NCBI GenBank assembly: GCA_964359725.1
Contig: CAYHTT010000002.1
Coordinates: forward strand, 1-49,213
Source: Candidatus Woesearchaeota archaeon
GTDB lineage: Archaea; Nanobdellota; Nanobdellia; SCGC-AAA011-G17; GW2011-AR20
DNA length: 49,213 bases
Direction of reading: 5' to 3'
Positions 15,552 through 19,615 of this stretch are shown here, in pieces (the stretch's first letter is position 1; each line of letters opens with the position of its first letter). Below the pieces are notes generated by a model, which was not told where the DNA came from, did not search any database, and worked only from the letters and a program-made list of their open reading frames with translations. A program made the translations under genes and the position numbers.

Positions 15552-16079
15552 TTATAATTCTATTTTCTTAATTTCAATTGCATATTTTCCAGGCATTCTT
15601 GGCTTAGATAAGGATAAAGCTTTTTTTGCTACATTTAATCCTTCTTGATCTACTTTAGTTGTAAATATTATTGTACCTTGATAAACTTGTGCAGCTAGTC
15701 CAATTGGCTTACCAAATGAATGAGCCATACCTGTTTGTAATCTGTCTGCATGAGCTCCACCAAGAATTTTATTCTCCCGTAAAACATGATGAGGATAAGT
15801 TAACAATTTTAAATGATAACCTTTATGACCTAACTCATTATATAATCTCCTATTAATTATTTGTCTACTTGATTCTAGAGCATTATGTCTTATTTGATGA
15901 GCATTTGTAGCTACTAAACCAACTTCATATTCAAATTTTTTATTTGGATTACCCATTTCAAATCTCACTATCTTATTAGAAGGAAAGGCTTTTATGTAAG
16001 ATTTAGCTTTAACACGAGAGTGCCTAGTATAAGGACGAGTAATTCTATTATAACAATGACCTTTTCTCAAACCTGCCAT
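15552..16079 (-). CDS. rpl10e: 50S ribosomal protein L10e (uL16)
   Basis: The N-terminus MAGLRKGHCYNRITRPYTRHSR and the overall pattern match L10e. A TATA-like TTTATAAATT lies at 16104-16113, about 29 nt upstream of the ATG. Confidence 0.92.
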   Translation of the reverse strand: MAGLRKGHCYNRITRPYTRHSRVKAKSYIKAFPSNKIVRFEMGNPNKKFEYEVGLVATNAHQIRHNALESSRQIINRRLYNELGHKGYHLKLLTYPHHVLRENKILGGAHADRLQTGMAHSFGKPIGLAAQVYQGTIIFTTKVDQEGLNVAKKALSLSKPRMPGKYAIEIKKIEL

Positions 16080-16126
16080 ATTTTAAGAATTTAGATTTAT
16101 AGATTTATAAATTTTGCTATGTCTTT

Positions 16127-16191
16127 GACTTAGTCCGAAAACTTTAGTTTTGTCCGAAGAAAAATAAATATATACGGAAAGTGTCCGAAAA
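16127..16191. repeat. left terminal inverted repeat region with three GTCCGA boxes
   Basis: The boxes are GACTTAGTCCGAAAA (16127-16141), TGTCCGAAGA (16151-16160) and GTGTCCGAAAA (16181-16191). Confidence 0.7.
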
Positions 16192-16275
16192 TTATTTAAA
16201 AAATTTTCCAATAATGGTTCTGTAAAATCTTCGGCATATAGAAATCTTTAAATAGATATTTTATTTCAAGATTTT

Positions 16276-16443
16276 ATGGCAAAAGACAATTTTGACAAGT
16301 TCTTAGATGAGAGTAAGAAATTAGTATTGCTTAATAAAGCAATTTATAATAAAGCGGTAACTGACGCGAGAAAAGAAGAGATTATGGAAAGTCTTCGTGG
16401 GCAAATTAATTACTTAATTAATAAATATTTTTCTGAAAAATAA
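16276..16443 (+). CDS. small hypothetical ORF (55 aa) inside the element
   Basis: Manual translation gives MAKDNFDKFLDESKKLVLLNKAIYNKAVTDARKEEIMESLRGQINYLINKYFSEK. It is below the ORF-track cutoff and there is no other support. Confidence 0.25.
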   Translation: MAKDNFDKFLDESKKLVLLNKAIYNKAVTDARKEEIMESLRGQINYLINKYFSEK

Positions 16444-16444
16444 T

Positions 16445-16594
16445 TTAATATATTTGATTAGCATTATAAATCAAATCAAGCCATTTATTCTTCCCAAGAT
16501 TTAAATTAACACCAGCTTGTTCTATTGGTGTTTTATTTATCCCTTGATGTATTCTTATAAAATTATAATGAACAACAAAAAGATTTTGATACCC
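16445..16594 (-). pseudogene. relic of the C-terminus of a DDE (rve/IS6-like) transposase
   Basis: Minus-strand translation gives GYQNLFVVHYNFIRIHQGINKTPIEQAGVNLNLGKNKWLDLIYNANQIY*. This matches the conserved [F/Y]NxxRPHQ-L-GKTP-E-AG tail of DDE integrase-fold transposases. An in-frame stop lies immediately upstream and no catalytic domain is present. Confidence 0.55.
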
Positions 16595-16703
16595 TTAATG
16601 AACATATTTTAGAAACCTCTTATAAAGATAAAGAAAATTCCGCGATAGATTACATTCACTCTGAAAAAGAAAAAGGGTCTGTTTTCTGGCAAACTAAAAT
16701 GCT

Positions 16704-17504
16704 TTAATTAAGATTAATATTCTTCTTTAATAAATACCTTTTTATTATTTTAGTAATTAGGTCTTCAAGTGATTGAATTACCTCTAATCCTCTTATTAGG
16801 TTTGGTCTTATTGTAAATAAGAGTATTTTTATTCTGGTTAATTTTTCTGAGTCTTCCTCTTTTAAGATTTTTTCATATTTTTTCAAATCTTCTTCCTTTT
16901 TAAATCCGAAAAGAAGCCCAGACATAGAGTCAGAAGTTTTTTTTGAAACATCTATATTATAAACTTCCATTAAAATTCTTTTTATATCTCTTTCAAGCTC
17001 CGATAAGATATAATTTAATGTTTCCATTACCTCTAAAATACCGAAAAATTCTTTAATTTTTTTCGGAACATTTTGCGAACCAAATTCTTTAACAATTTTC
17101 TCTCTTAAATCAGATTCAGAAAAATCCAACATATTTGTTGCACCAAGCCACCCAAAAATTTTATGGGCGTAAAAAGGTTTAGTGAGAATTGATTTTATCT
17201 CAGTTTCGCTATATTTAGAATAATCCCTTTCATTTAGATTTAAAGAATTAAGGAATAATTTTACTTCATTCAGTTCCTTAAGTATGTGGTCTAAATCAAG
17301 ACTTATATTTTTAATAAATATTTCCTCTTTATTAGATTGTTTTTCTGCTTCATCTGGCAATGTTTTTTTCGTTTTAGCATTCAAATGTTTATTTTTATAT
17401 TCTTCCTTACACTTAATGCTGCAGAATCTTTTTCCATCGAAAGTATGAATAATCTTAAGATTAAAAATTCCAATTTTTCTACTGCAATTAGGACAACCAT
17501 TCAT
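16704..17504 (-). CDS. TRASH/FCS-type zinc-finger protein with helical C-terminal region (cargo of the element)
   Basis: The N-terminal spacing C-x2-C-x20-C-x3-C (CPNC...KRFCSIKC) equals the TRASH/zf-FCS consensus. The rest is Lys/Glu-rich and helical, with no DDE signature. Confidence 0.6.
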   Translation of the reverse strand: MNGCPNCSRKIGIFNLKIIHTFDGKRFCSIKCKEEYKNKHLNAKTKKTLPDEAEKQSNKEEIFIKNISLDLDHILKELNEVKLFLNSLNLNERDYSKYSETEIKSILTKPFYAHKIFGWLGATNMLDFSESDLREKIVKEFGSQNVPKKIKEFFGILEVMETLNYILSELERDIKRILMEVYNIDVSKKTSDSMSGLLFGFKKEEDLKKYEKILKEEDSEKLTRIKILLFTIRPNLIRGLEVIQSLEDLITKIIKRYLLKKNINLN

Positions 17505-17568
17505 TTCAATTCAAGAATAGTAGATTAAATCATTATTTAAATTTAATGATTATAATTCTCATAAAAAC

Positions 17569-17612
17569 TTCTCGGACACTTATCGGACAGATTTAGCTTT
17601 TCGGACTAAGTC
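17569..17612. repeat. right terminal inverted repeat region with three TCGGAC boxes (the mirror of the left end)
   Basis: The boxes are TTCTCGGACAC (17569-17579), TCGGACA (17584-17590) and TTTTCGGACTAAGTC (17598-17612). Confidence 0.7.
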
Positions 17613-17619
17613 TATGTCT

Positions 17620-17877
17620 TTAAACTATTTCGACTTTTGTACCAAGACATTGTCCAGGCATACCAGTATTAAAATAAGCTCTTAATGCACCTTTATTGCC
17701 ATGTATATTTTTTATTACCCCAGTAAGTTCTTTTCCTTTAGGAGATTTCCAAATAACTTTTTTGCCAATAAGTAATTTAGCTTTTTCTTTATTATGTAAT
17801 CCGGGAACTTGCAAAATAAGTTGATTATTATATTGCCTATTTCCACCAATACGAAAATTAATTATTATAGCTTCCAT
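17620..17877 (-). CDS. rpl35ae: 50S ribosomal protein L35Ae (eL33)
   Basis: KLLIGKKVIWKSPKGKELTGVIKNIHGNKGALRAYFNTGMPGQCLGTKVEIV is closely similar to archaeal L35Ae. Confidence 0.9.
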   Translation of the reverse strand: MEAIIINFRIGGNRQYNNQLILQVPGLHNKEKAKLLIGKKVIWKSPKGKELTGVIKNIHGNKGALRAYFNTGMPGQCLGTKVEIV

Positions 17878-17878
17878 T

Positions 17879-19615
17879 TTAACTTATTAATATTTCAATT
17901 TCTTTTCCAATTAATTTTTTTAAACTCTCTAAAGTTTTCTCTTTCAAATAAACATCTTTAACATTAATGTTCTTTAAACTTTCATCTAGATCTTTCTGAG
18001 AAATTTCTTTAAAATTACTCAAGCTTCCATTACTTGATAAATCTGCTTTTAATATATCTTTTTCTTTTGAAGCTAGATCTTTAATTATATAAGCATTCTT
18101 CTCTAATAAATAAATTTCTCCTAATTTATCTTCATATTTAAAGCGGATTTTAACCCTCTCGCTTTCTAATCCTCTTTTTCTTTGTACAAATTCTAAAATA
18201 CTTCTAATATATTCACGAGCTTCTCTTCTTAATTTCTCATTTTCAGCTTTACTTAATTTTGTATCGCGAGCTTTAATTACCCTTTGTAATAAATTTAAGT
18301 ATCTTTTTGGTATTTCTCCTTTATCAACGACTTTCTTAATTGTTTGTTCTAATGATACTTCCTCTTTCACATCTAAAACATTAAATAAGTCACGAGTAAC
18401 AGCAATACAAGCATTATAAACATCTAATATTGATTCAGATTCTTTTCTTTTTTCTAGTTGAATAAATAATTTCTTTATTCTTTCAATATATTCTTTAACT
18501 TCCTTGACTAATTCATCTACATCTTTGCCAGAAACTTCTTTTATTTTACCATGTTCAACATCCTTATAATAATTGCGAACTTTTTCAAGAAATTTAACAT
18601 ATTTTTCTTCAAGTAATTTTTCTTTCTTAACAAAGATTTCATCCATTAACTCAATAGTTTCTGTAGGTGTAGGTGGGTTTACTCCATAAAGCATTAATAT
18701 TGCTTGTGCTGGATTTAATGTTGCATAATAAATATCCTCTACAACTATGCTAATCATTTTTCCTTTTACTCTTTCTAATAATTTTTCACCAATATCCATT
18801 TGCATGTCAATAGCTTCGGGACTTGGTTTAATTCTACCCATTTGTAATAATAAACGCCAAGGCATAAATACACCACGATCAAATAATGGAACGCCATCTC
18901 TCAAGAAAGTAAAAATTACAGGATGAGCATCTTTAACAGCATCCCAGAAGTCTGTTAAAATATAAGTTTGAATATGAAAATCTTTATTTACACCAGTAAG
19001 TTCTTTAGCTTCATAACCTTGAGTAATTATAATTGTTCTTAGTTTTTCTTTTAACTCAAATCTAGACATTCTTTTAACATCTGTATCATCAACAATAACA
19101 AAAACATCTATATCATGAGCTTTTTTATCTCCTCTAAATAAACTACCAGCTGCAACATAACTCATAATGTAACGTTCAAATTTCTTTAAAACCATTGATT
19201 TATGAACTTCTGCTATTTTAATAGCTGCAAGCATTTCTTTAGGATCATATATTTGTGCACTCATTGCAATTAACTGCAAAATTTCATATTTACCATCAAA
19301 ACAATTTTCTTTTAATTCAGATAAAAGTAAGGTTTCTGGTTTAAGATTTTTATCAATATCATTAGCAAATTTTTCTATTATCTTGCTAAGTTTTTCTTTT
19401 AACTCAAATTTACTCATTTTCTTGCTGTCAGAATCATCTACTAAAACTAAAACATTTATGCTAGTTTTATCATCTTGTTTAGGTGGAAGTAAAGCTATTC
19501 CTAAAATATATTCGGAAAATTCCTTTAAAACAAGCTTCTTGAATTTATCTAGCTTTAGCTTTAATTGCTCAAATTTCTTCTTTAAATCTTCTGGAATTTT
19601 TGGTTGCTTGTTCAT
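17879..19615 (-). CDS. tandem Pol-beta-superfamily nucleotidyltransferase-domain protein with a long helical C-terminal region
   Basis: Two related modules are present: INVLVLVDDSDSKKMSKFELKEKLSKII (aa 53-80) and GSLFRGDKKAHDIDVFVIVDDTDVKRMSRFELKEKLRTII (aa 157-196). Only the second has the G[S]x9-13DxD NTase signature. The stop lies 1 nt from the L35Ae start. Confidence 0.7.
   Translation of the reverse strand: MNKQPKIPEDLKKKFEQLKLKLDKFKKLVLKEFSEYILGIALLPPKQDDKTSINVLVLVDDSDSKKMSKFELKEKLSKIIEKFANDIDKNLKPETLLLSELKENCFDGKYEILQLIAMSAQIYDPKEMLAAIKIAEVHKSMVLKKFERYIMSYVAAGSLFRGDKKAHDIDVFVIVDDTDVKRMSRFELKEKLRTIIITQGYEAKELTGVNKDFHIQTYILTDFWDAVKDAHPVIFTFLRDGVPLFDRGVFMPWRLLLQMGRIKPSPEAIDMQMDIGEKLLERVKGKMISIVVEDIYYATLNPAQAILMLYGVNPPTPTETIELMDEIFVKKEKLLEEKYVKFLEKVRNYYKDVEHGKIKEVSGKDVDELVKEVKEYIERIKKLFIQLEKRKESESILDVYNACIAVTRDLFNVLDVKEEVSLEQTIKKVVDKGEIPKRYLNLLQRVIKARDTKLSKAENEKLRREAREYIRSILEFVQRKRGLESERVKIRFKYEDKLGEIYLLEKNAYIIKDLASKEKDILKADLSSNGSLSNFKEISQKDLDESLKNINVKDVYLKEKTLESLKKLIGKEIEILIS

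Follow-up and report, generated by a model that had tools for sequence, protein, structure and literature searches.

A probable internally deleted copy of a cargo-carrying transposon between two ribosomal-protein genes of a DPANN archaeon

The stretch of DNA analysed here (the window) comprises 49,213 nt of a Candidatus Woesearchaeota archaeon (assembly GCA_964359725.1, contig CAYHTT010000002.1, positions 1 to 49,213), has about 26% G+C and encodes archaeal ribosomal proteins. Between two of the ribosomal-protein genes, those for L10e and L35Ae, lies a segment of 1,486 bp (16127-17612), here called the element, which ends in terminal inverted repeats (TIRs) and is flanked by a 9-bp direct repeat. 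It holds two intact open reading frames (ORFs), ORF55 and ORF266, both reading inward from the ends, and the C-terminal stumps of two further genes, one for a transposase and one, gene 2, whose product has a predicted fold resembling tRNA-guanine transglycosylase (TGT). The features of the locus are as follows.

15552-16079, minus strand: gene for ribosomal protein L10e (uL16), flanking the element (PF00252, E=4.6e-26)
16104-16111, minus strand: TATA-box-like motif of L10e, TTTATAAA, 6 nt from the left duplication and 24 nt upstream of the L10e ATG, intact after the insertion
16118-16126, no strand: 9-bp target-site duplication TATGTCTTT, left copy, matching 17613-17621 exactly and flush with the left TIR
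16127-16141, plus strand: left TIR, GACTTAGTCCGAAAA, 15 bp, 100% complementary to 17598-17612
16127-16191, plus strand: left end with three GTCCGA boxes (16133-38, 16152-57 and 16183-88; spacing 19 and 31)
16276-16443, plus strand: ORF55, an orphan ORF of 55 aa, convergent with the transposase stump
16445-16594, minus strand: stump of an IS6-like DDE transposase, its last 49 codons and natural stop (16445-16447)
16561-16582, no strand: putative deletion junction, 22 nt readable as NYNEQQK (TGT-fold gene, plus strand) and as LFVVHYN (transposase, minus strand)
16561-16707, plus strand: stump of the TGT-fold gene 2, its last 48 codons and stop (16705-16707), with no ORF upstream in the window
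16704-17504, minus strand: ORF266, an orphan cargo gene of 266 aa with an N-terminal CxxC...CxxxC zinc ribbon
17569-17612, minus strand: right end with three GTCCGA boxes (17601-06, 17583-88 and 17572-77; spacing 18 and 11)
17598-17612, minus strand: right TIR, the perfect 15-bp inverted partner of 16127-16141
17613-17621, no strand: right copy of the 9-bp target-site duplication TATGTCTTT, overlapping the L35Ae stop codon (17620-17622) by 2 nt
17620-17877, minus strand: gene for ribosomal protein L35Ae, flanking the element (PF01247, E=1.3e-14)

The first-pass annotation, made from the letters alone, had proposed a transposon-like insertion with a 9-bp repeat abutting perfect 15-bp inverted ends, and what it read from the sequence is confirmed. 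The window contains 12 perfect 15-nt inverted pairs lying 300-8000 bp apart, and only the pair at 16127/17612 is flanked by a 9-bp direct repeat; a 9-bp flank matches by chance with a probability of 2.4e-5, and about 3e-4 such configurations are expected per window. The GTCCGA hexamer occurs seven times in the 49 kb, six of them within the two ends and in mirrored orientation, while shuffles of the window contained 1.75 per 49 kb and none of 100 reached seven. Three boxes per end in mirrored order had been annotated correctly; the extended consensus, GTCCGA-[A/T/G]-[A/G]-A, is slightly looser than the GTCCGA(A/G)A first given. By their likeness to other multi-site transposon ends the boxes are putative transposase-binding sites. 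Together the TIRs, the duplication and the boxes form a transposon signature that is well beyond chance.

The outer boundary of the element, G16127/C17612, is fixed independently by a second site. When metagenomes were scanned with the TIR and the next box, a contig of 28% GC from groundwater well H51, of the same aquifer community (L111), was recovered whose last 41 nt match the right end of the element at 40 of 41 positions, with the same box spacing. The match ends precisely at the terminal G; beyond it lie unrelated genes that the window lacks, and the contig itself is broken within the element. A degenerate three-box scan added another site, in a Nanoarchaeota metagenome-assembled genome of different geographic origin (L153, JAHIWS010000019.1), with the right end at 86% and identical 18/11 box spacing; no partner end was present within 6 kb, and this looks like a solo, decayed end. 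At this second site (1544-2169) the GTCCGA-box end lies 40 nt upstream of a gene of 181 aa that is HEPN-like by eye, followed by housekeeping sugar-metabolism genes, and it could be either a decayed element end or an end now serving as a promoter or operator region.

The remaining matches were of other kinds. The exact TIR with three boxes retrieved only two bacterial tandem repeats, and nothing viral, from 185k GTDB genomes and IMG/VR, and the matches listed for the degenerate three-box scans were periodic repeats of unrelated genomes and viruses, with many high-GC bacteria among them, L153 being the only relevant one. Three of the four metagenome-scan hits (L108-L110, JGI contigs of 44-47% GC) were rejected, as they have an unrelated conserved sequence in common, GACTTAGTCCGAAAATTG[C/A]AAGTCCGACAT, which matches the terminal 15-mer of the element by chance.

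When 16127-17621 (the insert and one repeat copy) is removed, the compact junction predicted earlier is indeed restored, with a 45-nt L35Ae-L10e spacer that reads TAA-AGACATA-GCAAAA-TTTATAAA-24 nt-ATG on the coding strand; the reconstructed empty site is ...TTTTGCTATGTCTTTAAACTATTTCG.... The right duplication copy had rightly been said to overlap the L35Ae stop codon. The left copy does lie near the L10e TATA box, at 6 nt from a motif at 16104-16111 rather than about 5 nt from one at 16104-16113. The insertion therefore appears to sit just upstream of a core promoter of L10e consisting of a B recognition element (BRE) and a TATA-like box, a putative role that rests on general knowledge of archaeal promoters. 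Of 80 DPANN loci retrieved by way of L10e, about 30 have L35Ae directly followed by L10e at a distance of 2-50 nt, and we conclude that the insert interrupts this synteny. Conservation of the same 1.5-kb segment in distant relatives, which would have spoken for an old fixed region, was not found; instead, relatives have the two genes adjacent.

Groundwater of the Hainich wells H41 and H51, sampled as 0.1-µm filtrates, yielded contigs identical to the window. An apparent 13-bp population variant in L003 was rejected because it is a run of scaffold Ns.

The interior of the element points to a larger ancestor. The secure homology of the transposase stump begins at 16582 (LFVVHYNFIRIHQGINKTPIEQAGVNLNLGKNKWLDLIYNANQIY*), and the transposase-family profile aligns with 16594 to 16460 on the minus strand (HMM positions 352-394, 15.5 bits, E=1.8e-6), with a tblastn match at E=0.002. 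Its peptide, LFVVHYNFIRIHQGINKTPIEQAGV..., contains the post-DDE motif YNFIRxHxxxxxTP and then the natural stop. An exhaustive search of 1.84 billion proteins with the 49 residues gave 181 relatives at E<=1e-3, the best of which, P0173 (89% identical) and P0174 (80%), are both partial or truncated genes, while the full-length ones are proteins of 305-396 aa; no NCBIfam model matched the 49-aa stump alone. The stump of gene 2 matches positions 320-368 of its family HMM (54.3 bits, E=3e-18) and is 89.6% identical to the gene 2 of two Hainich contigs, L001 and L025. The transposase stump lies immediately to the left of the gene 2 stump and is oriented away from it, both being C-terminal ends. In the DNA, homology to the gene 2 of L001 begins at 16560 and homology to the transposase genes of L106 and L352 runs to about 16584, and the 22 nt at 16561-16582, which can be read as part of either gene, form a microhomology where the two stumps meet.

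The two intact ORFs are orphans. ORF55 matches no Pfam family above the cutoff, and none of 340 fetched loci contains a relative. ORF266 likewise has no Pfam family above threshold, and its AF2 model shows a zinc ribbon and long helices and not a DDE fold, with a confidence (pLDDT 50) too poor for a fold search. Among 5.8 billion proteins it has a single relative, P0002 (55% identical), encoded on L001, a 1.5-kb contig from the same well, where it is convergent with a second gene, namely gene 2. In L025, the Hainich relative, the order is an 88-aa gene, gene 2 and the ORF266 homologue, and from the order in these two contigs it follows that ORF266 occupies a cargo slot.

Gene 2 itself belongs to a conserved family of about 371 aa without Pfam or NCBIfam hits, and a profile search of the sequences in the PDB found nothing. 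Its structural model is a TIM barrel (pLDDT 82.6), for which the top PDB matches by Foldseek are all tRNA-guanine transglycosylases (E ~4e-5, TM ~0.5). The product may be a DpdA-like nucleic-acid-modifying enzyme, and the likeness to transglycosylases led us to reject gene 2 as the missing transposase. The family is represented in L016, L018, L009-L015 and L025. In ten DPANN genomes gene 2 is part of a recurring module, which opens with a divergent gene (about 412 aa) and continues with two small ones (71 and 88 aa), gene 2 itself and variable restriction-modification genes.

The ~412-aa protein of this module is a DDE transposase, with a SWIM zinc finger, an IS1/IS1595-type zinc domain and a DDE_Tnp_IS240 core (PF13610, E=1.9e-9). 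It has at least 421 relatives, counted as transposase clusters, and the organism names among the 120 relatives listed are all of DPANN lineages or of an unclassified archaeon. For each of the four transposases tested the best NCBIfam model was that of IS6 (NF033587, curated cutoff 125), with 148.6 bits for P0204, 116 for P0256, 107 for P0175 and 91.5 for the L018-type P0053, so that one of the four exceeds the cutoff; the first three are full-length relatives of the stump. Four full-length elements, which we call sister elements, carry transposases related distantly to that of the element.

L018: 7.1 kb; cargo, TGT-fold gene and type III restriction-modification; 9-bp duplication ATTTTCCAA
L016: 6.2 kb; cargo, TGT-fold gene (frameshifted) and Eco57I/MmeI-like enzyme; 9-bp duplication TCGGAAAAA
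L354 (6656-11247): 4.6 kb; cargo, RelA/SpoT-like gene, EcoRI-type methylase and GmrSD-HNH; 9-bp duplication TTCACATGT
L356 (7222-11247): 4.0 kb; cargo, methylase-specificity fusion; 9-bp duplication GCCAAGCGA

All four have GAGAGTGTT termini, two repeated boxes and a perfect 9-bp duplication. They hold three to six genes. The TGT-fold gene is missing from L354 and L356; in the two that include it, L016 and L018, it comes after the transposase gene and the 71-aa and 88-aa genes, in that order, and before the cargo. The boxes of the sister elements are about 19 nt long (GTGTTAAG-N5-GTGGCTT) and number two per end, compared with three GTCCGA boxes per end in the element. The element and the sister group have in common the 9-bp duplication and an architecture of TIRs with repeated subterminal boxes, the sequences of which differ; with L016 and L018 the element also has in common a TGT-fold passenger.

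Taken together, these results make it very probable that 16127-17612 derives by internal deletion from a DDE transposon with cargo genes, of a kind specific to DPANN archaea, and is itself non-autonomous. The first-pass annotation's transposon-like insertion is borne out by the gene adjacency in relatives, the same end at other loci, the transposase stump and the 9-bp duplications of related elements. It had also noted that no intact transposase is present and offered a decayed insertion sequence (IS) or mobilisation in trans; the absence stands, and the element is better described as an internal-deletion derivative of a larger cargo transposon than as a simple IS. The family, which had not been recognised, can be narrowed down, as the stump groups the element with the IS6-like archaeal DDE transposases.

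Its history can be sketched as follows. The ancestor was probably about 4 kb long and arranged as [left end, 3 GTCCGA boxes][ORF55 >][< IS6-like transposase][small genes >][TGT-fold gene >][< ORF266][right end, 3 boxes]. Bound to the GTCCGA boxes, its transposase would have brought the ends together and joined them to a target cut with a 9-bp stagger, the 45-nt L35Ae-L10e spacer just upstream of the L10e BRE/TATA, and repair of the staggered target would have produced the TATGTCTTT duplication. As L10e kept its own promoter, the insertion would have been tolerated. A later deletion across the 22-nt microhomology would have taken out the small genes together with most of the transposase gene and of the TGT-fold gene, leaving two C-terminal stumps back to back; a single internal deletion is favoured because the order and orientation of the stumps fit [< transposase][small genes >][gene 2 >]. 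The copy would be immobile on its own, and its intact ends could still serve a matching transposase in trans. In this sketch the binding of the boxes, the order of events, the exact gene content of the ancestor and the chemistry of transposition (cointegrate or cut-and-paste) are the parts that we infer; the ends, the duplication, the stumps with their junction, the gene adjacency in relatives, the further sites with the same end and the 9-bp duplications of elements with related transposases are observed. What remains at the locus is a dead, fixed transposon copy, of an ordinary kind and from an uncharted lineage.

Several observations weigh against this interpretation. Although looking for further copies brought up the same end in L111 and L153, each of these shows one end only, and a full-length copy with GTCCGA-type ends was not found in the genome, virus or metagenome scans. 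The cognate transposase is seen only as the 49-aa stump and as fragments elsewhere, and the match of the stump to the L018-type profile is short, at 15.5 bits. The insert is identical in all eight independent assemblies of the population, and is therefore fixed; the empty site that the first-pass annotation had proposed to look for was absent from these eight assemblies. Finally the stump shares no more than about 35% identity with the L018-type transposase found alongside the TGT-fold gene in the full-length elements, and the sister-element ends (GAGAGTGTT..., two ~19-nt boxes) differ from those in the window. From this divergence and the differing ends it follows that the ancestor belonged to a different lineage, or that modules have been reshuffled.

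Candidates for an autonomous partner were also considered and rejected. The 305-aa IS of the AR20 type (L107) has no GTCCGA ends and no clear terminal repeats, and the closest relatives of the stump (L106, L352 and L353) are truncated or followed by other cargo, again without GTCCGA ends. In L352 a possible EVE-like gene (by eye) and a DNA methylase directly follow the transposase stop, in keeping with the modular cargo of the transposon group. The same contig starts (1-34) with GTGACTGGAGTTCAGACGTGTGCTCTTCCGATCT, which we take to be Illumina adapter sequence, its 5′ end being an assembly artefact.

The subfamily difference between the stump and the L016/L018 transposases, together with the clear modularity of cargo in the group, would also suit an element consisting only of ends that took up pieces of a transposase, a TGT-fold gene and ORF266, as Pack-MULEs do. 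We consider such fragment capture unlikely, since both stumps are C-terminal, have the order and orientation that a single deletion predicts and meet at a microhomology, and since the TGT-fold stump and ORF266 are convergent as in L001 and L025. There is a smaller chance still that the element is autonomous and that ORF266 is a new zinc-ribbon recombinase acting on the GTCCGA boxes. ORF266 is intact, neighbours one end and is preceded by a TATA-like box, carries a zinc ribbon at its N-terminus and falls in no known family; however its predicted structure of a zinc ribbon and long helices, of low confidence, contains no catalytic-looking core, it has just the one relative, that relative sits in the slot taken by restriction-modification cargo in the sister elements, and a DDE transposase stump is present in the same element.

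No more credible than the recombinase is the idea that the segment is an immobile old intergenic region in which the GTCCGA arrays are operators for a regulator of ORF55 and ORF266. The arrays do lie 40-90 nt upstream of an inward-reading ORF at both ends of the element and at L153 (the HEPN gene), and the insert is fixed in the population, but a perfect 9-bp duplication flush with perfect terminal repeats, the adjacency of L35Ae and L10e in relatives, the transposase stump inside the insert and an end sequence that stops at the same base amid unrelated flanks all argue for mobility. The least likely reading is a plasmid or virus remnant integrated site-specifically, with the 9-bp repeats as att cores: direct repeats at both borders and an interior of orphan genes with a gene typical of mobile defence islands would agree with it, but there is no integrase or integrase stump, the only recombinase trace being that of the DDE transposase, the repeats adjoin inverted, box-bearing termini, and four elements with related transposases have unrelated 9-bp repeats, as target duplications do and a fixed att site does not.

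Of the known families, IS6/IS26 comes closest. The transposase relatives carry DDE_Tnp_IS240 (PF13610), have NF033587 as their best NCBIfam model and are found with short inverted termini. A terminal motif GGnnnTG is quoted for IS6 and IS1, from which archaeal 'IS6' elements often deviate (PMC6807381), and the GAGAGTG terminus of the sister elements resembles it; nevertheless neither this terminus nor the GACTTAG of the element begins with GG. IS6 elements have 8-bp duplications, a length of 0.7-0.9 kb and a single ORF of 213-254 aa, ISDsp3 being the only listed member with a passenger gene (PMC7986276). In contrast the duplication is 9 bp in all five elements (the window and four sisters), the sister elements span 4.0-7.1 kb with several cargo genes and the window copy 1.49 kb with two non-transposase ORFs, the L018-type transposases of about 410 aa have SWIM and IS1/IS1595-type zinc domains, each end has two or three subterminal boxes, and three of the four transposases tested fall below the NCBI IS6 cutoff. 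IS6 elements proper move through cointegrates (PMC7986276), and Harmer and Hall have argued that a separate family may be needed for the archaeal 'IS6' elements (PMC6807381). The clostridial IS6 clades h and i come close in having an IS6-type core after CxxC zinc fingers in a transposase of 340-450 aa (PMC7986276), although they are bacterial and not reported with SWIM, multi-gene cargo or 9-bp duplications. The catalytic domain fits IS6/IS26 only loosely, and although the mode of action would be that of an IS6-type or another DDE transposon, we do not file the element as an IS6 member.

A second resemblance is to the Mutator/IS256 group. The eukaryotic Mutator-like elements (MULEs) and Pack-MULEs and the prokaryotic IS256 show 9-bp-class duplications, SWIM transposases, subterminal repeats and non-autonomous derivatives with gene fragments, and in MuDR-type transposases the SWIM finger is C-terminal. 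The DPANN group has the 9-bp-class duplication and the SWIM finger, with the latter N-terminal, and the IS256 model (NF033543) scores 27-35 bits against a cutoff of 150, so this is resemblance and not membership. With non-autonomous derivatives and miniature inverted-repeat transposable elements (MITEs) the element shares intact ends and a duplication, the lack of a working transposase and movement in trans only. MITEs are usually shorter than about 0.8 kb and without coding capacity, unlike this element, which at 1,486 bp has two ORFs intact; the IS6 review gives MITE lengths of 227 and 336 bp (PMC7986276). In the literature searched, a limited library in which absence is no proof of novelty, no description of the DPANN transposon group was found.

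The host-dependent DPANN archaea have very small genomes, in which mobile DNA has hardly been catalogued. The finding at this locus led to a large IS6-like group (at least 421 transposase clusters), here almost only from DPANN archaea, that moves restriction-modification and other defence genes and whose departure from most of the features defining IS6 bears on the debate over a separate archaeal 'IS6' family. It also shows that a transposon can come between two paired core ribosomal-protein genes, as long as the downstream gene keeps its own promoter. A bolder proposal, towards which we lean sceptical, is that the GTCCGA type is a lineage of its own, perhaps active to this day, within a large and undescribed IS6-like group restricted to DPANN archaea and characterised by 9-bp duplications, defence cargo and preferential insertion about 3-6 nt from TATA-like TTTATAAA motifs, on the upstream side of core promoters. 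If so, the defence cargo of the group would comprise restriction-modification genes, GmrSD-HNH, a RelA/SpoT-like gene and an uncharacterised enzyme with the TGT/DpdA fold, ORF266 would count as a novel protein of defence or accessory function, and a preference for TATA edges would explain independent hits on the L35Ae-L10e spacer in two lineages. Such a TATA-proximal preference, if it holds, would be one of few archaeal examples of integration targeted to promoters.

As to this preference, a TTTATAA/TTATAAA motif begins 10-14 nt before the duplication in four of five elements (the window, L018, L016 and L356, on reconstructed empty sites), and only 4.9% of random stretches of 59 nt contain it anywhere. 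It is absent at L111, L010 and L014, where a single end is present, and the sample is small. The pattern suggests insertion next to archaeal TATA boxes.

The second lineage is that of GW2011_AR20 (CP010426.1), the closest relative, in which the L35Ae-L10e spacer measures 577 bp (L026, 3424-4000). This spacer contains a different transposase stump in the same orientation (an ORF of 110 aa, about 38% identical to the window stump by eye) and its own repeated box, AAATCAACCGAA, in two copies, and it looks like an independent hit on the same spacer. An ancient insertion common to both was rejected, as the identity of the two stumps, compared by eye and not with an alignment tool, is no more than about 38% and their boxes are not the same; further evidence against it is that the flanking proteins are 65-79% identical while the ends of the element are still perfect.

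Upstream of L35Ae the window carries a conserved gene of 578 aa (17879-19615, minus strand) with weak nucleotidyltransferase and HEPN matches, below or near the Pfam cutoffs, and a homologue of this gene often precedes the L35Ae-L10e pair in the DPANN loci fetched through L10e.

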